From: Candidatus Eiseniibacteriota bacterium
Lineage (GTDB): Bacteria > Eisenbacteria > RBG-16-71-46 > JABDJR01
NCBI GenBank assembly: GCA_942491735.1
Contig: CALOCN010000001.1
Location: forward strand, 1,030,071 to 1,094,070
DNA length: 64,000 nt
Direction of reading: 5' to 3'
Made by a program: the position numbers and the translations under genes. The notes beneath the pieces were generated by a model. The model was given only the letters and a program-made list of their open reading frames with translations, was not told the origin of the DNA and searched no databases. Positions 9,457-51,731 of the stretch are shown here, piece after piece. Position 1 is the stretch's first letter. Each line of letters begins with the position of its first letter.

Positions 9457-11601
9457 GTGGTCGATCTCTCGATCGTCATCGTTTCCTACCGCACACCGGA
9501 GGTGTTGCGGGAGTGCCTGAAGGTGCTCACCACGGATACGGGGACACGCAGCCGCGAGATCCTGGTGGTGGACAACGACTCGGGAGACGAGAGCCCGGCC
9601 GTGGCCCGCTCCTTCGAGGGAGTCCGGGTCATCGAGACCGGTGACAACCTGGGATTTGCCGGCGGCGTCAATCGCGGACTGGCCGAGGCCGACGGCCGTT
9701 TCCTCCTCGTCCTCAACCCGGATATCGAGGTCCAGCCCGGCTCCCTGGACACCCTGATCGACTTCATGGAGGCGCACCCCGAGACCGGGATCGCCGCCCC
9801 CAAGCTGCTCAACACCGACGGCACCCTGCAGCACTCCTGCCGCCGCTTCTACACCCTGAGCACGATCATCCTGCGACGCTCCTTCCTGGGCCGGATCTTT
9901 CCCGATGCCGCGCCGCTGCGGCGGCACCTCATGTTGGACTACGACCACGAGACCCCGCGCGCGGTCGATTGGGTGGCCGGAGCGGCCATGCTGGTGCGTC
10001 GCGAGGCGCTGGACGATGTGGGTCCCATGGACGAGCGCTACTTCCTCTACTTCGAGGACGTGGACTGGTGCACCCGCATGCAGGCCCGCGGTTGGCTGGT
10101 GCACTACGTGCCGGACAGCGTCATGACCCACCATTGGCAACGGGCGAGCCGCACCCTGGGTCCGGCCGCGCGGCGCCACCTGCGCAGCGGGCTCCGCTTC
10201 TACGACCGCTGGGGCGGGTTCCTCCATGTGCTGCGGCAATCGGCCGGTGCGTGGCGGACCGGCGCCCTCGTGGCCCTGGACCTGTTGACCATCACCGCCG
10301 CGTTTCTCCTCGCCTTCCTCGCCCGTCAGCAGATGGCCTTCTGGCTCCAGAAACCGGTCTGGTCGCTCTCCTTCTACGGCAGCTTCTTCGCGGCGAGCGT
10401 GGTGGTGTACCTGGCCGGTTTCTCCATGCAGGGGCTGTACCGGGAAGTCCGCGAGGGGGACTGGGTGGATGTGGCCTTCAGGGTGATCAAGGGAGCGACC
10501 CTGGGCGCGTTGGTGCTGATGGCATCGACCTTCGTCCTGGACATGCGCTCCTACTCCCGCGCCATCGTGCTCGCCTCGTGGCCCCTGGCCGCCATGGGCG
10601 TGTTCCTCAACCGTCGCCTGGTCTACGCGCTCAGCGCGCGGGCGCGCCGCGAGCGGTGGAACCTGCGCCGGGTCGCCCTGATCGGCGAGGACCCGGCCAT
10701 GGATCGTCTGGAAGCCACGCTCCGGGAGAACACTGAGCTGGGCTGGGAACCGGTGCGGATTCGCCGCACTCCCTGGGTGGGTCTGCCGCCCCGGGACGCC
10801 GACGCGCTGCTCATCACCCTCCTGGCCCGGGAGCGGGTCACCGAAGTGGTGGTCAGCCCCACCGCGTTGGGTGTGGCCGAGGATGCCGTGGCCGAACGCA
10901 TTCTCCCGCTGCGCCGCGCCGGTCACGGGGTTCGTCTGGTCTCCAACTTCCTCTCCGCGCTGCCTCCGCGGGCCCGGGTGGAACGGATCGGTGACGTCAG
11001 CTGGCTCGCCCTGGAACGGCCCCGCCTGCAGCCCACCAAGACCAGCAAGCGGGTGCTGGATCTGGCGGGGGCCCTTGTGCTTGGTGGGTTGGGTCTCCTT
11101 CCCGTGTTGGCCCTGGGCGCGGCCCGTGGCCTCGCCCGGCGCGAGTTTCTGGAACCTGGGACCCCCTGGAAGGGTCGATGGGGGGAGACCCTGCGTGTCC
11201 GGCGGATTGCCGGCGGGGGTCGTCTCGCCGATTACCCCCTGCTGGGCGCCGTGCTGAGGGGGCGGCTCAGCCTGGTGGGACCACGTCCGCTGGCTCCGGG
11301 GGAAACGGTTCCCGGGGGAGACGCCTGGCTTCGGGTGCGTGAGCACCACCGTCCCGGTCTGGTGGGTCCCTGGTCGCTGGTCGCGACCCAGACCCCTGAA
11401 GAGGAGATGCAACAGGAACTTCGGTATCTCGAAGATTGGACTGCGGAACTCGATCTCAAGCTCCTGGCGCGGGTGGCACTTCGCCGCCCGGGAGGCGGTC
11501 ATGGCAGCGGGTCCAGTTCTCCCGCGCGTCGCACGGAGACCGCTCCCGATGGCCGACCCTCGGCCGCCCCGCGCAGTGCCCACCCCATGGGGACCTCCTG
11601 A
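9457..11601 (+). CDS. fusion protein: N-terminal GT2 glycosyltransferase + membrane region + C-terminal polyprenyl-phosphate sugar phosphotransferase (Bac_transf-like)
   Basis: GTG start; N-terminus IVIVSYRTPE...VVDNDSGD (GT2); central hydrophobic segments; C-terminal region with RVLDLAGALVLGGLGL and PGLVGPWSL resembling WbaP/WcaJ-type sugar transferases. Confidence 0.65.
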   Translation: MVDLSIVIVSYRTPEVLRECLKVLTTDTGTRSREILVVDNDSGDESPAVARSFEGVRVIETGDNLGFAGGVNRGLAEADGRFLLVLNPDIEVQPGSLDTLIDFMEAHPETGIAAPKLLNTDGTLQHSCRRFYTLSTIILRRSFLGRIFPDAAPLRRHLMLDYDHETPRAVDWVAGAAMLVRREALDDVGPMDERYFLYFEDVDWCTRMQARGWLVHYVPDSVMTHHWQRASRTLGPAARRHLRSGLRFYDRWGGFLHVLRQSAGAWRTGALVALDLLTITAAFLLAFLARQQMAFWLQKPVWSLSFYGSFFAASVVVYLAGFSMQGLYREVREGDWVDVAFRVIKGATLGALVLMASTFVLDMRSYSRAIVLASWPLAAMGVFLNRRLVYALSARARRERWNLRRVALIGEDPAMDRLEATLRENTELGWEPVRIRRTPWVGLPPRDADALLITLLARERVTEVVVSPTALGVAEDAVAERILPLRRAGHGVRLVSNFLSALPPRARVERIGDVSWLALERPRLQPTKTSKRVLDLAGALVLGGLGLLPVLALGAARGLARREFLEPGTPWKGRWGETLRVRRIAGGGRLADYPLLGAVLRGRLSLVGPRPLAPGETVPGGDAWLRVREHHRPGLVGPWSLVATQTPEEEMQQELRYLEDWTAELDLKLLARVALRRPGGGHGSGSSSPARRTETAPDGRPSAAPRSAHPMGTS

Positions 11602-13874
11602 TGCATCACACTCCACGACACGGTCGGCTTCTCCCGGCCGTCCTGGCCCTTCTCGCGATTGCCGTCGCCCTCCCGCCGAACGTCCGGGCCCAGAACGCCG
11701 CCGACGCGTTTACCCCGTTCGTCGCCGCGTTCGACCTCACCGAGATCACCACCACCGGGGGCGTCCTGTGGATCGCCACCAACGGGGGGGGCGCGTTGCG
11801 TTTCGATCCCAACGGCGGCGGGTTCACCCAGTACCCCAAGTTGTTGGGCACCGGGCCGAGGGGCAACGACCTCGTCACCACCTGCGTCGATTCGGAGGGC
11901 CGGGTCTGGTTCGGCAGCGCCACCCGGGGTTTCACCTTCTTTGATCCGCAGACGCAGACCTGGGATCGCCGCTCGGAGGAATGGCCCGACCCACGGATCC
12001 GGGTCATCCGCTGCCTCGAGGAAGGGGTCTACATCGGCACCCAGGAGGGGCTCTCCCTGAAACCCACCGCCAACCGGACCGACATCTGTGCACCGGCCGA
12101 CCCCAGCTGCATTGTTCCCTCGTTCATCGTCAACGACTACGCCCTCCTGGACGAGAGTCTCTGGGTGGCGACCCGCGAGGGGTTGGGACGGTTCAGCGAG
12201 GGGACGTGGGACTCGCTGAACACGCTGCCGGTCGGGTCCCAGGGGCAGAACTCGCTCTCGCTGGTCACCTTCGAGGGGCAGCTCTGGGAAGCGGCGGAGT
12301 TCGCCGCCTCGACCGGGGCGGTGCGACGCCTGGTGGACGGGGCCTGGCAGGTGTTCGAGCTGCCGGCGCACAGGTTGCGCGTCCTCGACGGATCGCTCTA
12401 CGCCATCGCGGCCGGGGATCTGTTCCGCTGGGACGGTACCGCGTTCCAGCCCCTGTCCGAGCCGGTGGACGATGACATTCGCGACGTAGCTCTCCTGGAC
12501 GGTGTCTATTGGTTGACCACCGGCAACGGGTTGGTTTCCTGGAACGGCACCGCGGCCACGTCGACCCGCTTCGTTCCGCCCGGGTTGGGGCTGGGGGGGG
12601 AGTTCCAGGCCCTCACCGTGGACAGCAAGGGGACGGTGTGGGCCGGCACCATCGGGAACCGGATCGGCATTGCCTCCCGGACCCGAACCGGCGAGTGGGA
12701 CACGATCCTGCCGGGAGCGAGCGGCCTGGAGAACGAGTGGATCTTCCAGCTGTATGCCGACAGTGGGGATCGGTTGTGGATCGGACACTGCTGTTGTCCC
12801 GAGGGACGCTGCCGACTCGAGGTGGATTGTGCCGGCGGCATCGGGAGTATCGCCACCTACCGCAACGGGTGGGCGTTCGCCGAGGACAACGCCCGCCGCA
12901 TGTGGGTGGGGACGGATCAACTCGGCGCGTTGGTCTTCCGGCGCACCACGGACTGTTCCTGGGAGCTCGAGGATCAACTGACCGCCTCGGACCCCGCCGG
13001 CGTCATGTCTTCCAACAGCGTGCGCGCCATCGCGGTCACCGGGGAAGGCACCTACTTCGGCCACCTGCAGAACGGGCTCGACTACTGGCCGCACCGCGGC
13101 AACCTGAGCACGGGGCGGGACGGGTCGAACTGGATCCATGTCGGAACCACCGGCTTCGGACTCCTCGACAACAACGTGGGCTCCATTGCCCTGGTGGGGG
13201 AGGATGCCTGGGTCGGCACCTCGAGCGGCCTGCACCGGTTCCGCGCCGGGGGTCTGGTGACCCGGTGTCCCTCGCGTATTCTCGACGACCTGGACGATCA
13301 GGCCCGTCGGGTCACCGCGGTCACCGTCGATCGGGACGGGAACCTCTGGGTGGGGACGGATTCGGGACTGCTGTTCCTGCGGCGCGGAGGAGCCTGTGAC
13401 GCGGGCGGCGGCGAGTTCCTGTCCTACACCCAGGACAACTCCGCACTCCCGGACAACAACGTGCTCTCGGCCACCCTCAACCCGGTGGATGGTTCGGTCT
13501 GGATGGGAACGTCCACCGGTCTGCTGCGGATTGACCCCGCCGTCTTCACCAGCGGAGGAGGGAGCGCACCGGACCAGTACGTGCTCTATCCGAACCCCGT
13601 CGATCTGACCCGGGTCGGGGCGCGGGTGAGTCTGGGACTGGAGTCCGGCGGCTCCGTGGATCGCGTTCCCCTGGCCGATGCCCAGCAGCCGGAGGTCCTC
13701 GACATGGCGGGTCAGGCGGTGGGCCGGTTCGATACCTTCATGGATGGCGGCGACGAGGGTTGGGTGTGGAACGGGAAGAACCTGACCGGGAGCGTGGTCG
13801 CCCCGGGACTCTATTTCGTGCGAACGCAGGTCGGAGGACAGACGGTGGTGCTCAAGCTCGGGGTAGTGCGATGA
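11601..13874 (+). CDS. secreted beta-propeller protein (two-component-regulator-propeller-like repeats) with C-terminal FlgD-Ig/T9SS-like domain
   Basis: Internal ATG 11601 (overlaps upstream stop, TGATG); signal-peptide-like MHHTPRHGRLLPAVLALLAIAVALPPNVRAQ; about 10 repeats of LW[IV]GT..GL..F type; C-terminal YPNP...WNGKN..G..V..GLYFV. Confidence 0.65.
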   Translation: MHHTPRHGRLLPAVLALLAIAVALPPNVRAQNAADAFTPFVAAFDLTEITTTGGVLWIATNGGGALRFDPNGGGFTQYPKLLGTGPRGNDLVTTCVDSEGRVWFGSATRGFTFFDPQTQTWDRRSEEWPDPRIRVIRCLEEGVYIGTQEGLSLKPTANRTDICAPADPSCIVPSFIVNDYALLDESLWVATREGLGRFSEGTWDSLNTLPVGSQGQNSLSLVTFEGQLWEAAEFAASTGAVRRLVDGAWQVFELPAHRLRVLDGSLYAIAAGDLFRWDGTAFQPLSEPVDDDIRDVALLDGVYWLTTGNGLVSWNGTAATSTRFVPPGLGLGGEFQALTVDSKGTVWAGTIGNRIGIASRTRTGEWDTILPGASGLENEWIFQLYADSGDRLWIGHCCCPEGRCRLEVDCAGGIGSIATYRNGWAFAEDNARRMWVGTDQLGALVFRRTTDCSWELEDQLTASDPAGVMSSNSVRAIAVTGEGTYFGHLQNGLDYWPHRGNLSTGRDGSNWIHVGTTGFGLLDNNVGSIALVGEDAWVGTSSGLHRFRAGGLVTRCPSRILDDLDDQARRVTAVTVDRDGNLWVGTDSGLLFLRRGGACDAGGGEFLSYTQDNSALPDNNVLSATLNPVDGSVWMGTSTGLLRIDPAVFTSGGGSAPDQYVLYPNPVDLTRVGARVSLGLESGGSVDRVPLADAQQPEVLDMAGQAVGRFDTFMDGGDEGWVWNGKNLTGSVVAPGLYFVRTQVGGQTVVLKLGVVR

Positions 13875-24401: not shown

Positions 24402-25306
24402 GGAGCGGCGATCGTCTGTAGCCCCGTCGGGTCCAGGCGAACGGTCAACCGGCGAATCTCCATGTCGATGAACTCGCCGTCCACGTAGCCGGGGATTCCT
24501 TGCGGTGCCTCCACCGTGAACGCGGCGGCGCGGGCGCTGTCCACCCGGGTGGACTCGGTGTGGCTCCCCTTGAGGGTGCGCGGGAGCAGGGCCAGCATCT
24601 GCCACCAGCGCAGCCGCTCGGCGGTCATGAGATCCAGCAGGCCGTCGGCCGGATCCGCGTGCGGGGCGAGCAGGAACGCACCCCCCACCCGGCGCCCATT
24701 GAGAAAGCTGACCATCGCCATCGCGTCATCCAGGGCGCCCTCCTCCCAGGTCACCCGGGCCGGATAGCAGCGGAAGTGTCGCAGGGTGCGCACCAGGGCC
24801 ACTACGTAGAGGAGCGGCCCCTTGATCGCGGTGATCCGGTGACTCTCGTAGTTCACCACCGCCTCGAACCCGAGTCCCACGCTGTTGTGAAATCGGCCGG
24901 ACTCGGTTCGCCCATCGGCCATTTCGGCGTTCCACAGACCCAGGTCAATGCGCTTGCGCAGCCCGCGGCTGAGCCGATCCACGATTGCCGTGGGGTCCGT
25001 GGGCCAGTCGTGCAGCCACGCGAAGTCGTTGCCGGTCCCCCAGGGGACCACCGCCAGGGCATGTCGGGAAGGATCGAGGCCCTGCAGGACCTCGTGCAGG
25101 GTCCCGTCCCCGCCCACCGCGACCACCACGTCCGTCTCGTCGCCGTGGGCCCGTACGAGGTCGGGAGCGTGGCCGGGGTGCTCGGTGAGGACGAGCCGGG
25201 TGGGGTGCCCCCGCCCTTCCAGCAGGGCGGCCAGGGCGCGGGGATCGCGATCCGCCCGTCCACGACCGGCGTGAGGGTTGGCGACGAGCAGGAAGCGGCT
25301 TGCCAT
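24398..25306 (-). CDS. diacylglycerol kinase-family lipid kinase (YegS/DagK-like)
   Basis: Internal ATG at 25306 (residue 49 of track ORF); GGDGT motif (VVAVGGDGTLHEV); convergent 4-bp overlap with nth. Confidence 0.8.
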   Translation of the reverse strand: MASRFLLVANPHAGRGRADRDPRALAALLEGRGHPTRLVLTEHPGHAPDLVRAHGDETDVVVAVGGDGTLHEVLQGLDPSRHALAVVPWGTGNDFAWLHDWPTDPTAIVDRLSRGLRKRIDLGLWNAEMADGRTESGRFHNSVGLGFEAVVNYESHRITAIKGPLLYVVALVRTLRHFRCYPARVTWEEGALDDAMAMVSFLNGRRVGGAFLLAPHADPADGLLDLMTAERLRWWQMLALLPRTLKGSHTESTRVDSARAAAFTVEAPQGIPGYVDGEFIDMEIRRLTVRLDPTGLQTIAAP

Positions 25307-35634: not shown

Positions 35635-35951
35635 ACCCGGCGCCGGTCGGCGTCGAACCACGTCATGCGTCCTCAGCACTCCTCGAAGGACGTCAGACAT
35701 CGTCCGTGGCCGGTCTCCTGACTTGCGGGTCATCCTCGGGTCGCCCCTTCCCGGAAACGTGTTCCAGTGGGATTCTTGCGACCGTTGTCACCGCTTACAG
35801 TGGCGGGTCCGTGCCGGATTCTCACCGGCTTCCCGTGCACCACGGACGAGATGTGAGTGAGGCGCAGTCTAGGGATGCGGGAGGGGGGGGTCAATGAGGA
35901 ACAGGGAATCGGTTACGGTTAGGCGGGATACAGGTTCGGGAAGGAGCAGCG

Positions 35952-45600: not shown

Positions 45601-45778
45601 CTTCTACTACCTCTCGGGAGGTGGATTCCCTCCAAACAACGACCCCTGATAAATGCGCGAAAACCATACCTTATTGGCACCCTTGAGGATAGGGGCCATG
45701 TTGGATCGTTCAAGGGGCGGAAACCGATGCTACGATGAGGCTCCCCGGTGTCTCGACCACTCGAAGAGGATCCTTGTC

Positions 45779-47821
45779 ATGAGTGTGCATCCCAGCGTGT
45801 GCCCCCTGGATTGTCCCGACGCCTGCAGTCTCGAGGTGACGGTGGAGGGGGGCCAGGTCACCACCGTCGACGGCGGCCACGCCAATCCCCTCACCGAAGG
45901 CTACATCTGCGCCAAGGTGCGCCGTTTTCCGGAGGCCATGTACGGTCCGGAGCGGGTGATGCACCCGGCCATCCGCGTCGGGGAAAAGGGATCCGGGCGG
46001 TTCGAGGACGTCTCCTGGGATGTCGCCCTGGACCGGATTGCTGAGCGGTTCGCCGCCGATCGGGACCGGTTGGGGGGGGAGTCCATCCTGCCCCTTTCCT
46101 ACGGGGGGTCCAACGGGCTGCTCTCCCAGGACACCACCGATGCCCGGCTTTTCCGCCGCCTGGGGGCGTCCCGGCTGGCCCGCACGGTGTGCGCGATTCC
46201 CACCGGATTGGCCGCGAAGGGGCTCTACGGGAAGATGGCGGGGGTGGCCTACCAGGACTATCGCGAAGCGGAGCTGGTGGTGGTGTGGGGAATGAACCCC
46301 CATGCCAGCGGCATTCATCTGGTGCCGCACCTGCAGGCGGCCCAGGACCGGGGAGCGAAGCTGGTCGTGGTGGATCCGCGTCGGATCAAGCTGGCCGATC
46401 GGGCCGATCTCCACCTCGCGCCCTATCCCGGCACCGACGTGGCTCTGGCCATGGCGGTGATCCATTGGCTGTTCGAGAACGGACACGCGGATACGGAGTT
46501 CCTCGCCGCCCACGCCGTCGGCACGGAGGCGCTGCGTGAGCGGGCGGCCGGGTGGACCCTGGAGAAGGCGGCCGGAGTGTGTCGCATGACACCGCAGGAA
46601 ATCGAGACCTTTGCCGGGTGGTTCGCGGAGGCCAACCCTGCGGTGATTCGCTGTGGATGGGGACTGGAACGGAATCGCAACGGAGGTTCCGCGGTGGCCT
46701 CGGTGCTTGCCTTGCCCGCGGTGGGAGGGAAGTTCGGGGTCCGTGGCGGGGGCTACACCATGAGCAACTCCGGCGTGTGGCCGCTCGAGTCGGATGCCGG
46801 CGCCGGGGTGAAGGAGACGAACACCCGCGTCGTCAACATGAACCGGATCGGTCGCGCCCTGACCGGGGACATGGATCCCCCGGTGACCAGTCTCTTTGTC
46901 TACAACTGCAACCCGGTGGCCACCCTTCCCAATCAGGATCTGGTGCGGCGGGGGATGCAGCGCGAAGACCTGTTCACGGTGGTGTTCGACTCGTTCTGGA
47001 CGGACAGCGCGCGGTTGGCCGATGTGGTGTTGCCCGCGTCCACGTTCCTGGAGCGGCGCGATGTCCGCAAGACCTACGGTGCCTTCGCCCTGCAACAGGC
47101 GCATGCGGTGGTGCCGGGAGTGGGGGAGTCGCGGAGCAACCACGACGTGTTCCTGGATCTGTGCCGGCGTCTGGAGCTGGAAGAGTCCGGGGATGCCATC
47201 TCCGAGGACGCCATGCTGGACGCGATGCTGGTCGGCAACCCGGACGGCGAGCGGATCGGGAGGGAGCTGCGGGAGAACGGGATCACCCTGCCTGCGTTCG
47301 GGGATCGGCCGGTGCAGTTCGTGGATGTGTTTCCCGGGACGCCGGACCGGAAGGTCCACCTGATCCCTGATGACCTGGATCGGGAAGCGCCCGAGGGTCT
47401 CTACGCATTCCGCAACGAGGCGCGACAGAAGACGTATCCGCTGGCGCTGATCTCCCCGTCCTCGAAGAAGATGATCAGCTCCACCCTGGGTCAGTTGGTG
47501 GAGGGGCAGGTTCCTTTGGATATCAACCTGGCCGACGCCAAGCCGCGGGGGATCTCGTCGGGGGACGAGGTGCGGGTATGGAACGATTACGGCGAGGTGC
47601 GTTGCCAGGCGCGGGTTTCCGGGAAGGTGCGGTTGGGGGTGGTGCAATTGCCCAAGGGGCTATGGGCCCGTCACACCACGAACGGGAACACCTCGAACGC
47701 GCTCGCCCCGGACACCCTGACCGACGTGGGGGGCGGTGCCTGCTTCAACGACGCCAGGGTCCAGGTGGAGAAGGCCGGGGGTGACGAGGCGGGGGCCGGA
47801 TTCCTCAGGCCAGTAAATTAA
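45779..47821 (+). CDS. molybdopterin-dependent oxidoreductase (DMSO-reductase superfamily)
   Basis: Internal ATG 45779; N-terminal 4Fe-4S motif CPLDCPDACSLEV; molybdopterin-binding C-terminal domain by eye; alternative start ATG 45698. Confidence 0.8.
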   Translation: MSVHPSVCPLDCPDACSLEVTVEGGQVTTVDGGHANPLTEGYICAKVRRFPEAMYGPERVMHPAIRVGEKGSGRFEDVSWDVALDRIAERFAADRDRLGGESILPLSYGGSNGLLSQDTTDARLFRRLGASRLARTVCAIPTGLAAKGLYGKMAGVAYQDYREAELVVVWGMNPHASGIHLVPHLQAAQDRGAKLVVVDPRRIKLADRADLHLAPYPGTDVALAMAVIHWLFENGHADTEFLAAHAVGTEALRERAAGWTLEKAAGVCRMTPQEIETFAGWFAEANPAVIRCGWGLERNRNGGSAVASVLALPAVGGKFGVRGGGYTMSNSGVWPLESDAGAGVKETNTRVVNMNRIGRALTGDMDPPVTSLFVYNCNPVATLPNQDLVRRGMQREDLFTVVFDSFWTDSARLADVVLPASTFLERRDVRKTYGAFALQQAHAVVPGVGESRSNHDVFLDLCRRLELEESGDAISEDAMLDAMLVGNPDGERIGRELRENGITLPAFGDRPVQFVDVFPGTPDRKVHLIPDDLDREAPEGLYAFRNEARQKTYPLALISPSSKKMISSTLGQLVEGQVPLDINLADAKPRGISSGDEVRVWNDYGEVRCQARVSGKVRLGVVQLPKGLWARHTTNGNTSNALAPDTLTDVGGGACFNDARVQVEKAGGDEAGAGFLRPVN

Positions 47822-47895
47822 GTACTTTCTTGACAATAGTTTATGACTTTCCCTGGGGAAAGTCGCTCGGGTTTCGGCGGCGGTAGGTGCCTGTT

Positions 47896-48646
47896 TGTCC
47901 ACCCGGGTGGACAGTGTTCGCCCTCTCTCCGACGCCTGGTAGAGTCACCGCATGCTCGACGACCGCCACGATCACCGGGTTCATTGTTGGCGACAACCCT
48001 GCCGAGTTGACCTTCGCCGTTGAGGTCGACGACCATCGGACGTTGGATGCGACCTTGCCCGCGGTGCCGATCGTCGCCGACGCCGGAGCTACGGAGCGTC
48101 GGCGCTACGTCACTTTCGAGGCACGCCGGCGATACTCCCACCCACGCGGCATTCGACCAGGACATCCTGGGCATCCACCCCGACTATCGGGTGGAGATTC
48201 GACTCGACATCCTGGAGGAGATTGACGGTCCCATGTTGCGGCACGGCCTTCAGGAGATGCACGGGGTTCAGCTTCAGGTGCCGGCCCGCAGGGAGCTCAG
48301 ACCGGATCGCGATCGACTTGCGGTTCGGTACGACCAGTTTCGCGCCGGGGGATCCGGGTCGTCACCGGTCCACCCGGGTGGACGCTCACCCGAACGTACC
48401 GGCGGTTGCTCGTGCTTCCCTAAACGTGTCAGCCACCGGGGTCATCTCCACGGAACAGGTGCTGGGCGTGTGGGGACTCCGACGCGCGTTGCTGCATCCC
48501 AGTTCAACAGCCCGTGGGGCTCCAGTGAGTTTGAGTGCGTCGCCGCCCTCGACTCAGCGCTCTTCACACCCGTCCACCCGGGGCGAATCCACGCTAAGTG
48601 CGCCTCCCAGTCCCCTTGAACCGGGCCATGGTCCACCCGGGTGGAC
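47896..48646. repeat. three copies of a 16-bp perfect palindrome GTCCACCCGGGTGGAC (plus one half-site) in an 880-bp gene-poor gap
   Basis: Copies at 47897-47912 (18-bp version 47896-47913), 48368-48383, 48631-48646; half-site 48572-48583. Confidence 0.8.
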
Positions 48647-48701
48647 TCAGCCACCCGGCCTCGGGTCCCCCCGCCGGTTTCACCTGCGCTAGAATCCCGT
48701 C

Positions 48702-49691
48702 ATGCCAACCAACGTACCGCCGCAATGGCGTGCCCTCGAAGAGGAGTATCGCCAGGCCACCGATCACGACGAGAAGATCCGCCTCCTGGAAGAGCTGCTC
48801 CGGACCGTCCCCAAACACAAGGCGACCGACCGGCTCCAGGCGGACCTCAAGTCCAAGCTGGCCAAGCTCCGCAAGGAACCCAAGAAGAAGGCCGGGGCCG
48901 GGGCGGGTCCCAGCCACACCATCGCGCGCGAGGGGGCCGGCCAGATCGCCCTGGTGGGGCCGCCCAACGGGGGGAAGTCGTCGCTGCTTGCGGCCCTGAC
49001 CCACGCCGAGCCCAGGATCGCCGACTACCCCTTCACCACCCGCGAACCCCAGCCCGGCATGATGCGACACGAGGACGTCCCGATACAGCTGGTGGACCTC
49101 CCGCCGCTTTCGGACGAGCACGTGGAGCCGTGGGTCTACGACAACATCCGTCGCGCCGACGTGGTGTGGCTGGTCTCGGACAGCGGCCAGGCGCTGGATG
49201 GAGTGGAGCTGTGTCTGCGCCTCACCGATCCCAAGCACGTGGGTCTGGTCCCGGCCGGGCGCGAGGTGGACGGGGAAGGCAAGCCCATGGGCTGGATGCC
49301 CAAGCCCACTTTCCTGGTGGTTACCGGCATGGACAAGCCGGATGCCGCCGGGAATCTGGAGATCCTGCGGGAGTTGCTGGAGATCCCGTTTCCTGTCTTC
49401 CCCGTTTCCGCCCCCACTCTTGCAGGAACTCCCGAGCTGGCCGCCGCCACCTGGAACCAGCTCGGCAGGATCCGCATCTACACCAAGGAACCGGGCAAGG
49501 AGGTGGACCGCACCACCCCGTTCATCGTTCCCCTGGACTCCACCGTCGAGGACCTCGCACGTCACATCCACAAGGACCTTGCCGAGCGGCTCAAGTTCGC
49601 CAAGGTGTGGGGAACCGGCGTGTTCGACGGCCAGCAGGTCCACGCTGAACACACCCTGCACGACAAGGACGTCGTCGAGCTTCACGACTAG
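48702..49691 (+). CDS. DRG-family GTPase (Obg-related, with C-terminal TGS domain)
   Basis: G1 motif [11 protein letters not shown]; N-terminal coiled-coil and C-terminal IRIYTKEPG...[11 protein letters not shown] aligning by eye with DRG proteins; TAGAAT 6 nt upstream of ATG. Confidence 0.75.
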
Positions 49692-49739
49692 ATCCCCAGT
49701 CTTGCCGCCGCCTTCCCGATCCGTCAGTATCCCCCGACC

Positions 49740-50672
49740 ATGACCTCCGTCGGCACGCCTCCCATCGAAGCGATAGGCCTCGTCAAGCGCTACGGCGACC
49801 TGACCGCGGTGGCCGGTATCGACTTCGCGGTGGCGCCCGGGACCTGTCTCGGGCTGCTCGGTCCCAACGGGGCCGGCAAGACGACCACCATCGAGATCCT
49901 GGAGGGGCTGCTGGATCCGGACGCCGGCGAGGTCCGGGTCATGGGGCGCACCTGGAAGGAGGGCGGCGATGCCATCCGTCAGGGCATTGGGGTGCAGCTC
50001 CAGGAAACCAAGCTACCCGAGAAGCTCACCGTCATCGAGGTGCTCAACCTCTTTCGCAGCTTCTACCGCGAGGGGCGGGATCCGGAAGAGGTCATGGACC
50101 TGATCGGCCTCACCGAGAAACGCACCGCCCGGGTGACCACCCTTTCCGGGGGGCAGCAACAACGTCTCGCCCTCGGTTGCGCCCTGATCAACCACCCCAA
50201 ACTGCTGTTTCTCGACGAACCCACCACCGGTCTGGATCCCCAGGCCCGCCGTCGGGTGTGGGAGATCGTCGAGGAGTTCAAGGCCGAAGGAGGAACCGTC
50301 CTCCTCACCACGCACTACATGGACGAGGCCGAGCGGCTCGCCGACGACCTGGTCATCATCGACCATGGCAAGGTCATCGCCACCGGGAGCCCGGCCGAGA
50401 TCATCGCCTCCCTGGGGGTGGCCAGCATTGTTTCGTTCCAGACCCTGGAGGCGGTGCACGATATCGCCTTCGACGGCCTGCCCGGCGTGGCCTCGGCGCG
50501 TGCCGACGGGGAACGGACCGAGCTCACCGTCTCCGAACCCCATCTCGCCCTGCAGGCCCTTCTGGATGCCCTGCGCGACCGCGACCTGAGCGTGGCCGAT
50601 CTGCGGACCCATCGACCGACGCTCGAGGATGTGTTCGTTTCCCTCACCGGCAGGCACCTGCGCGATGAGTAG
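49740..50672 (+). CDS. ABC transporter ATP-binding protein (ABC-2/DrrA-like)
   Basis: Walker A GPNGAGKTT, signature LSGGQQQRL, Walker B LLFLDEPT. Confidence 0.9.
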   Translation: MTSVGTPPIEAIGLVKRYGDLTAVAGIDFAVAPGTCLGLLGPNGAGKTTTIEILEGLLDPDAGEVRVMGRTWKEGGDAIRQGIGVQLQETKLPEKLTVIEVLNLFRSFYREGRDPEEVMDLIGLTEKRTARVTTLSGGQQQRLALGCALINHPKLLFLDEPTTGLDPQARRRVWEIVEEFKAEGGTVLLTTHYMDEAERLADDLVIIDHGKVIATGSPAEIIASLGVASIVSFQTLEAVHDIAFDGLPGVASARADGERTELTVSEPHLALQALLDALRDRDLSVADLRTHRPTLEDVFVSLTGRHLRDE

Positions 50673-50696
50673 GGTGATCCCGGCGGCGTGCTCCCG

Positions 50697-51731
50697 ATGA
50701 AGCGCAACCAGCTCTACCAACTCACCCTCATGCGGCTCATCCTGTTCTGGCGCGAGCCCGAGGCGGTGTTCTGGGTCTTTCTCTTTCCGTTGATCCTTGC
50801 CCTGGTCCTGGGCTTCGCCTTCAAGAACCGCGGGGTGGAGCCGAGCCGGGTCGGTGTCATCTCGGGGGTAACCGACGATCGCTGGATCGCCGCCCTGGAC
50901 TCCTCGGCCAGTGTGGAAACCGTTCGTTTCGTGGACGGCGACGTCGCGGCGAAGAAGCTTCGCACCGGCGGGGTCGAGGTTCTGGTTCTCGACGGCGACC
51001 CGATCGTACTGCGTCTGGACCCGACCCGCCCCGAAGCGGAAACGGCGCGTCTGCGGATCCACGAGCTCATCCAACGGGACGCGGGGCAGCCGGATCTGGT
51101 TCCCACCACCACCGAACCCATCACGGAGCGCGGTTCCCGCTATATCGACTTCCTCATCCCGGGGCTGCTCGGCATGAACCTCATGGGCACCGGCATGTGG
51201 GGGACCGGGTTCGCCATCGTGGACATGCGGCAGAAGAAGCTGCTCAAGCGGTTCCTGGTCACCCCCATGCGTCGCTCCAATCTCATGCTGGGGCAGATGC
51301 TCTCCCGGCTGGCCTTCCTGGTCATGGAAGTCTCCCTCATCACCGCCTTCGGCGCCCTGGTCCTGGGCGTCCCGTTCCGGGGCGCGGTGGGGACCTACGC
51401 CCTGTTCTGCGTGCTGGGCGCCCTCGTCTTCTCCGGGTTGGGGCTCCTGACCGCGTCCCGGGTGCGGACCATCGAAGGCGCGAGCGGGCTCATGAACTTC
51501 GTCATGATGCCCATGTGGCTTCTCTCGGGGGTCTTCTTTTCCTACGAGCGTTTCCCCGAGTTCCTCCACCCGTTCATCCGGGCCCTTCCCCTCACCGCGC
51601 TCAACGACGCGTTGCGGGGTCTGATGCTGGAGGGGGACAGACTGCTCGACCGGGGACCGGAACTGGCGGTGCTGACGGTTTGGACCCTGGGTTCCTTTGC
51701 GGTGGCCCTGCGTATTTTCCGCTGGCGTTGA
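50697..51731 (+). CDS. ABC-2 family transporter permease
   Basis: Six hydrophobic segments; follows the ATPase gene; ATG 50697 (GTG 50688 alternative). Confidence 0.75.
   Translation: MKRNQLYQLTLMRLILFWREPEAVFWVFLFPLILALVLGFAFKNRGVEPSRVGVISGVTDDRWIAALDSSASVETVRFVDGDVAAKKLRTGGVEVLVLDGDPIVLRLDPTRPEAETARLRIHELIQRDAGQPDLVPTTTEPITERGSRYIDFLIPGLLGMNLMGTGMWGTGFAIVDMRQKKLLKRFLVTPMRRSNLMLGQMLSRLAFLVMEVSLITAFGALVLGVPFRGAVGTYALFCVLGALVFSGLGLLTASRVRTIEGASGLMNFVMMPMWLLSGVFFSYERFPEFLHPFIRALPLTALNDALRGLMLEGDRLLDRGPELAVLTVWTLGSFAVALRIFRWR

Follow-up and report, generated by a model that had tools for sequence, protein, structure and literature searches.

The window, by which we mean the whole analysed stretch of 64,000 nt of Candidatus Eiseniibacteriota DNA, carries a gene for a GTPase of 329 amino acids. 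We consider it probable that the product is an Obg-family GTPase of the DRG (Rbg/Drg) lineage, with minimal architecture, from a branch widespread among bacteria, and that the ribosome role and the transcript model proposed below apply. As shown by sequence comparison, homology to DRG extends over the whole length of the protein, and its position is separate from Obg and YchF. DRG/Rbg proteins have been described in a review as present in archaea and eukaryotes, "though not in bacteria" (PMC8629797), and elsewhere as "not in eubacteria" (PMC4263083); in a recent preprint, Obg is argued to be the bacterial ortholog of Drg. Since the DRG helical domain, Lys loop and TGS domain occur together in a broad clade of bacterial proteins, the archaeal/eukaryotic-only picture is incomplete. 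Features of the gene and its surroundings are listed in Table 1.

Table 1. Features of the DRG-like GTPase gene, its product and the upstream region (positions in the window)
Feature	Position	Strand	Evidence or remarks
CDS of DRG-like GTPase	48702..49691	+	ATG start, 329 aa and TAG stop; ORF list, sequence, GC by codon position, Pfam MMR_HSR1 and TGS
N-terminal three-helix (HTH-like) domain, residues 1-59	48702..48878	+	AlphaFold helices 7-18, 22-35, 40-58; alignments with Rbg1/Rbg2 and archaeal DRG
PKHKAT (Lys) loop, residues 37-42	48810-48827	+	aligns with KNKAT of Rbg1/Rbg2
Gly/Lys-rich flexible linker, residues 60-76	48879..48929	+	pLDDT about 51; aligns with Gly-rich linker of Rbg1
G domain, residues 77-255	48930..49466	+	
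G1/P-loop GPPNGGKS, residues 86-93	48957..48980	+	intact; G86, G91, K92 invariant; N89, S93 at at least 90%
G2/switch I YPFTT, residues 109-113	49026..49040	+	intact; T113 invariant
G3 and switch II, residues 132-153	49095..49160	+	DLPP for DxPG; 5-residue deletion; no GAxxGxGxG loop
Short loop at site of DRG S5D2L insert (about 60 residues), residues 185-198	49254..49295	+	alignment gap
G4 TGMD for NKxD, residues 208-211	49323..49334	+	guanine-binding Asp retained
G5 VSAP, residues 235-238	49404..49415	+	S236 conserved in 210/229
C-terminal TGS domain with RIYTKxPG motif, residues 256-329	49467..49688	+	Pfam TGS; aligns with TGS of Rbg1 and human DRG1 (2eki)
TAGAAT, -10-like hexamer at -12..-7 from A of ATG	48690..48695	+	followed by 6 nt (CCCGTC), then ATG
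Spacer upstream of GTPase gene, 880 nt	47822..48701	.	lineage-specific; no recognised gene or RNA
16-nt perfect palindrome GTCCACCCGGGTGGAC, nearest copy	48631..48646	.	centre about 63 nt upstream of ATG
Other copies of GTCCACCCGGGTGGAC	47897-47912, 48368-48383, 24539-24554		

The reading frame has a codon-position GC of 0.71/0.42/0.87, the same as that of adjacent genes, and the identical protein is present on a 1.38-Mb NCBI contig and on a Logan contig. Since the TAG inside TAGAAT (48690) is an in-frame stop of the GTPase ORF, a start further upstream is impossible. M1, P2 and N4 are invariant or almost so in the family-wide alignment, which fixes the ATG at 48702 as the start codon. The first-pass annotation gave 48686 as the start, a difference that only adds the upstream hexamer. 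In databases, bacterial DRG-like proteins bear names from automated annotation only, which are generic, e.g. "TGS domain-containing protein".

When the PDB was searched by sequence, Rbg1 (2.9e-32, 115 bits) and Rbg2 (1.2e-29) were the top matches, with B. subtilis Obg at 2.1e-16 (63 bits) and YchF at 2.6e-4. Foldseek likewise places Rbg1 at the top (1.3e-19, TM 0.59 over 364 columns) and Nog1 next (4.5e-11). Archaeal DRG (aRbg), represented by the 387-388-aa "OBG GTPase family GTP-binding protein" of Thermococcus/Pyrococcus (P0239, P0341), shows 37% whole-length identity. The alignment with the Thermococcus protein is interrupted by one 60-residue gap. The same archaeal protein aligns with Rbg2/Rbg1 over its entire length (about 1e-65). 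When the family alignment was compared with the DRG alignment by hhalign, the probability was 100% (E=4e-108, 328 columns).

Could the protein be an ordinary bacterial Obg or YchF paralog, resembling DRG only superficially? This is hardly conceivable. Obg models of NCBIfam cover the G domain only and score 51-63 bits against cut-offs of 280-406, the YchF model TIGR00092 scores 25 bits against 279, and no NCBIfam model at all reaches its cut-off on this protein. Pfam detects neither GTP1_OBG (the Obg fold) nor PF06071 (YchF_C) in it, and for its N-terminal helical domain and Lys loop, DRG is the only group that aligns. A distance-based NJ tree (59 sequences, 200 bootstraps, three outgroup sequences) recovers the bacterial clade in 92-93% of bootstraps and separates DRG in the broad sense from Obg/YchF in 95-97%; after removal of switch II columns these values are 55% and 74%, respectively. 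The DRG-type assignment made by the first-pass annotation, with placement inside Obg/YchF clades named as the result that would contradict it, thus agrees with both searches and the phylogeny. In the same tree, support for a bacterial clade placed within archaeal DRGs of TACK type is 80%, falling to 44% without switch II columns, and this placement is not claimed here.

Pfam recognises MMR_HSR1 at residues 81-163 and TGS at residues 257-327 (TGS E=3.1e-15), and the AlphaFold model has a mean pLDDT of 93.4. A layout of N-terminal coiled coil, G domain and C-terminal TGS had been proposed from the sequence; its last two parts are confirmed, whereas the N-terminus forms no coiled coil but a three-helix domain followed by a disordered linker. 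This domain begins with a conserved MPxN, and M1, N4, H39 and K40 are invariant in the family alignment. The Lys loop K-x-K-(A/G)-T of DRG is present, with K40 and T42 invariant in both alignments. The full-length alignment with DRG, also noted earlier, indeed runs end to end except for about 60 residues that correspond to S5D2L. The absence of S5D2L is seen as a 60-residue gap both in the pairwise alignment with Thermococcus DRG and in hhalign, and PF16897 (S5D2L, MMR_HSR1_Xtn), which matches archaeal DRG at 1.3e-20, is not detected in the protein even with E values of up to 0.1 allowed. All archaeal and eukaryotic DRGs listed for comparison carry PF16897.

We compared the protein with known systems. 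Archaeal DRG shares with it an N-terminal extension of about 20 residues, MP(T/A)N...Y..AE, which eukaryotic DRGs lack, as well as the PKHK(G/A)T loop, the same G1/G2 motifs and a TGS domain with RVYTKxPG. Many archaeal DRGs are also devoid of the G3 glycine (EVPA, DTPP). Archaeal DRGs differ in possessing the S5D2L of about 60 residues (PF16897), where the window protein has a 14-residue loop, and a mostly full-length Gly-rich switch II, which is 5 residues shorter in the window protein. Eukaryotic DRG1/Rbg1 and DRG2/Rbg2 (PDB 4A9A, 7RR5, 7NRC) are its top matches among solved structures, by sequence and by Foldseek. They have the same order of helical domain, G domain and TGS, and their KNKAT equals KHKAT here; unlike it, they have S5D2L, DLPG with GAxxGxGxG, and NKID, and no MPxN extension. 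Eukaryotic DRGs act with the DFRP partners Tma46 and Gir2; for these, neither a bacterial counterpart nor a recurring neighbour emerged at 80 loci.

Bacterial Obg/CgtA (PDB 1LNZ, 1UDX; E. coli ObgE) is similar in its Obg-family G domain, P-loop PNxGKS and YPFTT. On the contrary, it has a glycine-rich N-terminal Obg fold, DxPGLIEGA and NKxD, has no helical Lys-loop domain, and lies outside the DRG group in the tree. YchF/OLA1 differs by a helical insertion in the G domain, which the alignment shows to be absent from the DRG-like protein, by NxxE for NKxD, and by lack of an N-terminal helical domain.

Conservation of GTPase motifs was assessed from column counts over 229 diverse family members. 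The G1 motif, switch I Thr, G3 Asp, G4 Asp and G5 Ser are each conserved at at least 90% over about 230 members. By this comparison, the residues for binding of phosphate, Mg2+ and guanine are shown to be conserved: P-loop GxxNxGKS, Thr113, Asp132, Asp211 and Ser236. The G3/switch II region, aligned with DLPGIIDGAKDGRGRG of Rbg1 and DIPGLIEGA of Obg, is different. The G3 glycine is normally essential for the GTP switch, and its position is occupied by Pro in 202, Ala in 19 and Ser in 8 of 229 members, never by Gly. Throughout the bacterial clade G3 reads DxPP for DxxG, and switch II is shortened and glycine-free. G4 columns contain T154/N54, G119/K87 and D216 of 229; TGMD is a feature of the sub-lineage of the window protein, other bacterial members having NKxD or TKxD. 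Features that define DRG are hence missing: the S5D2L insert, DxPG with glycine-rich switch II and, in the sub-lineage, also NKxD.

We wondered how far such proteins are spread. A database search gave 5,706 matches, the bacterial clade counting more than 5,000 database proteins, and 478 representative clusters at 50% identity have E below 1e-30. A scan of genome contigs found clade members in more than 600 species genomes with about 20 phylum-level labels; it used the pattern PKHKGT, which PKHKAT of the window protein does not fit, so that its own genome was probably missed. The closest relatives of the protein are all bacterial (55-68% identity), the best named ones coming from Gemmatimonadales and Vicinamibacterales (53-56%). 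The DRG-like GTPase is therefore not peculiar to this genome and belongs to a large unstudied bacterial branch. The description of the protein as of archaeal/eukaryotic type accordingly holds for the DRG lineage; the protein itself is a member of a large, specifically bacterial clade without S5D2L and DxPG. The product of a neighbouring gene has its best named relatives in Thermoanaerobaculia and Polarisedimenticolia (Acidobacteriota), at 61-63%.

DRG being regarded as an archaeal and eukaryotic family, and the bacterial clade adjoining Desulfurococcales- and Methanomethylicota-type DRGs in the NJ tree, one may think of a recent transfer of the gene from an archaeon into this genome. We judge this very unlikely, as base composition and GC3 equal those of adjacent genes, the nearest relatives are bacterial without exception, the clade is monophyletic across many phyla, and synteny with the upstream oxidoreductase gene is retained in related bacteria. 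Any inter-domain transfer would be ancient. A wider proposition, which we hold tentatively and regard as just short of evenly balanced, is that many bacterial phyla possess a true DRG-lineage GTPase, presumably beside Obg, that has been overlooked, possibly works as a non-canonical 70S switch, and derives from ancient transfer or pre-LUCA descent. Were it true, the Obg/DRG split would have to be interpreted differently under either of these origins. A search for obg/ychF with the G domain of Obg as query, covering the window plus 80 related loci (875 kb), matched only DRG-like genes.

Clues to function come from yeast Rbg1, whose HTH, G and TGS domains contact the ribosome and whose S5D2L contacts A-site tRNA; deletion of S5D2L still gives modest rescue (PMC8629797). 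Since the domains retained here are those reported to carry Rbg1 function (PMC8629797), we infer Rbg1-like binding to the ribosome. The helical, G and TGS domains would attach the protein to the GTPase-associated centre, and the contact of Rbg1 with A-site tRNA, made by S5D2L, would be absent. The protein may act as a nucleotide-dependent factor in translation; as Pro135 offers no backbone NH to the gamma-phosphate, this would be sensed mainly by switch I. Both ribosome binding and nucleotide hydrolysis are extrapolated from Rbg1 here. GTPase activity could be weak or absent, or the nucleotide a different one, in view of the lost G3 glycine, the truncated switch II and TGMD. Among 80 loci there is no conserved gene neighbourhood, and none hinting at translation; the most frequent family occurs at 10 of them in scattered positions. 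The upstream molybdopterin oxidoreductase gene is common to close relatives only.

Two other functional readings deserve consideration, each of them rather improbable in our opinion. The protein might be a pseudo-GTPase, a static scaffold or ribosome binder that, with or without bound nucleotide, does not switch by hydrolysis. The glycine-free, truncated switch II and the DxPP of the whole family speak in its favour, as does the additional loss of Asn and Lys of NKxD in the sub-lineage; yet the conservation of the G1, switch I, G3, G4 and G5 residues points to selection on Mg-nucleotide binding, and the many archaeal DRGs with no G3 glycine indicate that its loss is tolerated in the DRG lineage. 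Alternatively, the protein might be a ribosome-assembly factor like Obg/Nog1 instead of a factor on translating ribosomes. Subunit maturation is the role of most Obg-family and Era-like GTPases, the second-best Foldseek matches are Nog1 in pre-60S particles, and the domain which touches A-site tRNA in Rbg1 is missing. Against this, the nearest homologs by a wide margin are DRG/Rbg proteins, binders of translating ribosomes, and the domains retained are those reported as necessary for Rbg1 function. The bacterial clade may offer a system for studying DRG function without DFRP partners. It also represents a natural experiment on which parts of DRG are dispensable (S5D2L, G3 glycine, glycine-rich switch II) and which selection has retained (MPxN at the very N-terminus, Lys loop, P-loop, switch I Thr and TGS).

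Further, we examined the region upstream of the gene. After the same molybdopterin oxidoreductase gene, spacers in relatives measure 2 nt (L084) and 126 nt (L086), and in the closest relative the GTPase gene abuts the upstream gene and appears to be translationally coupled. The lineage-specific spacer of 880 nt, which would have cut the gene off from the oxidoreductase gene, implies that the GTPase gene needs its own promoter. The first-pass annotation reported TAGAAT ending 6 nt before the ATG and no Shine-Dalgarno sequence, and the letters bear out both: GGAG, GAGG and AGGA do not occur within 18 nt upstream. Hexamers that match TATAAT at 5 or more of 6 positions number 10 in 128 kb of both strands (7.8e-5 per position), so that chance would place one with its end 5-7 nt upstream of a start about 2e-4 times per gene, or about 0.01 times per window. 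Folding prediction leaves the first 17 nt, counted from the AUG, unpaired. In the window, 9 of 33 first starts have a Shine-Dalgarno sequence, against a background of 13.5%; the source-annotated ATG start of a neighbouring gene has one upstream.

The leaderless transcript suggested from these features is compatible with the sequence, and such a hexamer would seldom be there by chance, but no -35 element accompanies it and the arrangement is not conserved in orthologs. A Shine-Dalgarno sequence precedes the gene in about half of these, and only 4 of 78 show a -10-like hexamer equally spaced from the start. A leaderless transcript as a lineage-specific arrangement is nevertheless plausible. A -10-only promoter (TAGAAT) would be the most likely one, with transcription starting at the AUG or a few nt from it; the resulting mRNA would be leaderless or near-leaderless and possibly run on into the ABC-2 transporter genes 48 nt downstream. 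An mRNA with a leader that lacks a Shine-Dalgarno sequence, made from a promoter elsewhere in the spacer or by read-through from the oxidoreductase gene with TAGAAT being incidental, is a serious competitor to which we give a substantial chance, though clearly short of even. A scan for sigma-70 consensus promoters and terminators in 47700-49900 yielded nothing, neither a -35 partner nor a terminator, the downstream ABC gene is also devoid of a Shine-Dalgarno sequence, and the oxidoreductase and GTPase genes abut in the nearest relative. What argues against a leader is the rarity of such a hexamer at exactly -12..-7, the unstructured 5' end predicted from the AUG, and a second relative (L085/L086), in which TAGGCT at the equivalent place ends 7 nt before an ATG with no Shine-Dalgarno sequence.

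The spacer gave no Rfam match, whether gathering scores or a limit of E=1 were applied, and no blastn match to plasmids, its ORFs gave no Pfam match, and PADLOC returned no meaningful defence-system match. The gap had been called palindrome-rich, rightly so, as three perfect copies of GTCCACCCGGGTGGAC lie within 47822-48701. With up to 2 mismatches allowed, this palindrome is matched 5 times in the window, against 0.24 expected.

The GTPase gene opens with an ATG whose assignment is unusually secure, since an in-frame TAG lies four codons 5' of it and the Met-Pro-x-Asn N-terminus varies little or not at all among 68 diverse homologs. Its GC content at the three codon positions (0.71/0.42/0.87) is like that of the flanking genes. 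A 363-codon antisense ORF shows the wrong periodicity and was rejected as a high-GC shadow. An identical protein is encoded on two contigs, one at NCBI (1.38 Mb) and one from Logan that matches the window exactly.

Pfam detects MMR_HSR1 (residues 81-163) and TGS (257-327) in this protein. In a PDB sequence search the best matches were yeast DRGs, Rbg1 (2.9e-32, 115 bits) and Rbg2 (1.2e-29), with B. subtilis Obg (2.1e-16) and YchF (about 1e-4) far weaker. None of the NCBIfam models reached its cut-off: Obg models scored 51-63 bits versus 280-406 and the YchF model 25 bits versus 279. The AlphaFold model (input alignment of 68 sequences, mean pLDDT 93.4) has three helices at the N-terminus and, after a disordered Gly/Lys linker, the G and TGS domains. 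In Foldseek against PDB, Rbg1 ranked first (1.3e-19; TM 0.59, 364 columns), with Nog1 and Obg eight orders of magnitude behind. The DRG-type identity proposed in the first-pass annotation is thus borne out by sequence and by structural search.

The protein was further compared with P0239, a Thermococcus protein of 388 aa whose match to Rbg2 and Rbg1 spans the whole length (about 1e-65) and which is hence a bona fide archaeal DRG. The two are 37% identical from end to end, interrupted only by one gap of 60 residues, the S5D2L insert: PF16897 is present in P0239 and every DRG listed, and Pfam finds no match to it in the window protein. Profile-profile comparison of the bacterial family with an alignment of archaeal and yeast DRGs gave a probability of 100% (E=4e-108, 328 columns). 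An N-terminal extension of about 20 residues (MPxN...Y..AE) is common to bacterial and archaeal proteins and missing from yeast DRGs. The Lys loop is common to all three (PKHK(G/A)T here, KNKAT in Rbg1), and its second Lys is the one that JMJD7 hydroxylates in human DRG1/2. A DRG review names this modification without naming the residue (PMC8629797). In some bacterial members of 350-361 aa (P0126, P0161, P0203, P0231, P0174), acidic low-complexity stretches of 20-30 residues are inserted precisely at the position of S5D2L in DRG, a loop that appears to be an insertion hot-spot. In the 435-aa protein P0018 from an ENA metagenome, a parvulin-type PPIase region (PF00639/PF13616) directly precedes the DRG-like part in the same frame, which probably reflects read-through from an adjacent upstream gene and not a true fusion.

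A neighbour-joining tree was constructed from 59 sequences (329 trimmed columns, Kimura-corrected distances, 200 bootstraps), with E. coli ObgE and YchF (MG1655 record) and T. thermophilus Obg as outgroups. Bacterial, archaeal and eukaryotic DRGs together split from Obg/YchF in 95.5-97% of replicates (74% without 20 switch II columns), so that the protein is not placed inside Obg/YchF. The bacterial family is monophyletic in 92-93% (55% without these columns). It groups with archaea, not eukaryotes, in about 82%, and stands beside Desulfurococcales- and Methanomethylicota-type DRGs in 80% (44% without these columns).

A word-indexed search retrieved 5,706 homologs. Of the best 120, almost all measure 325-329 aa and contain MMR_HSR1 and TGS; they are named "ribosome-interacting GTPase 1" (JGI) or "TGS domain-containing protein" (NCBI). 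Exhaustive search of 50%-identity representatives yielded 478 clusters below 1e-30. In a scan with each species represented by one genome, the matches listed include more than 600 loci, in Gemmatimonadota, Acidobacteriota, Planctomycetota, Desulfobacterota, Omnitrophota, Methylomirabilota, Bipolaricaulota, Nitrospinae, Binatia, Zixibacteria, Chloroflexi, Firmicutes (Pelotomaculum, Desulfotomaculaceae), Armatimonadota, Lentisphaerae, Kiritimatiellae, Poribacteria and others. Among matches listed, a metagenomic protein comes nearest to the window protein (68% identity), and those of Gemmatimonadales and Vicinamibacterales share 53-56%. Published accounts find DRG homologs in Archaea "though not in bacteria" (2021 review, PMC8629797) and Drg and Nog1 "not in eubacteria" (Suwastika et al. 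2014, PMC4263083); according to a 2024 preprint and its 2026 successor, Rbg/Drg is archaeal and eukaryotic and Obg is the bacterial ortholog of Drg. Literature searches for bacterial DRG, COG1163 and K06944 found no description of the clade, which databases know through automated names only. Judged from its sequence, the protein belongs to the DRG lineage, lacks two or three DRG-defining features, and represents a large, uncharacterised bacterial clade.

Motifs G1 (GPPNGGKS), G2 (YPFTT) and G5 (VSAP) are intact and strongly conserved; G3 reads DLPP. The fourth G3 position is Pro in 202 of 229 aligned family members, Ala in 19, Ser in 8 and Gly in none. Compared with DRG or Obg, switch II is shortened by 5 residues, and the GAxxGxGxG loop is absent. 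The G3 glycine is kept in yeast DRGs, Obg and, among archaeal DRGs sampled, only Thermococcales; many others lack it (Hodarchaea and Hadesarchaea have EVPA, Desulfurococcales DTPP; EAPA also occurs), so that a glycine-free G3 is widespread in prokaryotic DRGs. In many archaeal DRGs (proteins P0383, P0395, P0219, P0386, P0390, P0258 and P0268) G3 has Glu for Asp and Ala/Pro for Gly. Most bacterial members have NKxD or TKxD at G4, and the sub-lineage of the window, Gemmatimonadales and Vicinamibacterales has TG(M/L)D; the guanine-contacting Asp of G4 is retained in 216/229. Conservation of P-loop, switch I Thr, both Asp and G5 Ser argues against a dead domain. Since Pro at G3 offers no backbone NH for the gamma-phosphate, we infer that any switching would have to rely on switch I.

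Rbg1 sits at the GTPase-associated centre via its G, HTH and TGS domains, and its S5D2L contacts A-site tRNA; deletion of HTH or TGS abolishes function, and deletion of S5D2L leaves modest rescue (PMC8629797). The three required domains are exactly those retained by the bacterial clade. By this analogy, the protein may be a ribosome-associated, nucleotide-dependent translation factor; rival readings are a ribosome assembly factor or a non-hydrolysing binder. No gene family recurs near the GTPase gene in 80 loci, and PADLOC found no defence association.

The first-pass annotation also proposed a possible leaderless mRNA. TAGAAT occupies positions -12 to -7 from the A of the ATG, and no Shine-Dalgarno motif lies within 18 nt 5' of it; such motifs precede 9/33 first starts in the window (background 13.5%). 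Hexamers with at least 5/6 identity to TATAAT number just 10 in 128 kb, so that the chance of one at exactly this distance is about 2e-4 per gene. This, and the predicted unpaired state of the first 17 nt from the AUG, speak for a leaderless mRNA; against it, a -35 element was not found. With a Shine-Dalgarno motif in 40/78 orthologs and a -10-like hexamer at the same distance in only 4/78, the arrangement is not a family trait. The leaderless reading is the best single one, with a leadered mRNA lacking a Shine-Dalgarno sequence roughly equal in probability.

In all three close relatives the same molybdopterin oxidoreductase gene as in the window (62-69% identity) lies 5' of the GTPase gene, a synteny kept in closest relatives only. 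The spacer is 2 nt in L084, where GGAG and a GTG start probably indicate coupled translation, and 126 nt in L085/L086, where TAGGCT ends 7 nt before the ATG without Shine-Dalgarno sequence. At 880 nt in the window, it has grown in this lineage, leaving the GTPase gene in need of its own promoter. The palindrome-rich gap reported earlier is real: the spacer contains the 16-nt palindrome GTCCACCCGGGTGGAC three times without a mismatch. It has no Rfam, Pfam or plasmid match, and may have arisen by insertion of a repeat element or serve as an array of operators. Codon-position GC of 0.35/0.78/0.77 in its middle part suggests a remnant of coding sequence; the spacer ORF has no Pfam match.

Features of the window
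Feature	Position	Strand	Remark
tRNA-Ser (GCT) gene	554-632	-
812-aa protein	11436-13871	+
GTCCACCCGGGTGGAC, outside spacer	24539-24554		perfect
Cobalamin riboswitch	35691-35859	-	Rfam RF00174, 117 bits
Molybdopterin oxidoreductase	45653-47821	+	Fe4S4, Molybdopterin, Molydop_binding domains
Spacer	47822-48701
GTCCACCCGGGTGGAC, in spacer	47897-47912, 48368-48383, 48631-48646		perfect
Spacer ORF	48020-48619
Putative coding remnant	~48040-48300
Antisense ORF	48594-49685		rejected
DRG-like GTPase CDS	48702-49691	+	ATG start, 329 codons
ABC transporter ATPase	49740-50672	+	starts 48 nt 3' of GTPase gene
ABC-2 permease	50688-51731	+

The oxidoreductase, closest to those of Thermoanaerobaculia and Polarisedimenticolia, has 680 aa in the source annotation, which implies a start at ATG 45779, not 45653; a Shine-Dalgarno motif lies just 5' of this ATG. 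No terminator was detected between GTPase and ABC genes, and the ABC ATPase gene likewise lacks a Shine-Dalgarno motif; co-transcription is possible. Elsewhere in the window, the C-terminal region of the 812-aa protein matches the type IX secretion PorZ model (NF052228, E=1.5e-23, below cut-off), which hints at T9SS-type secretion in this organism.
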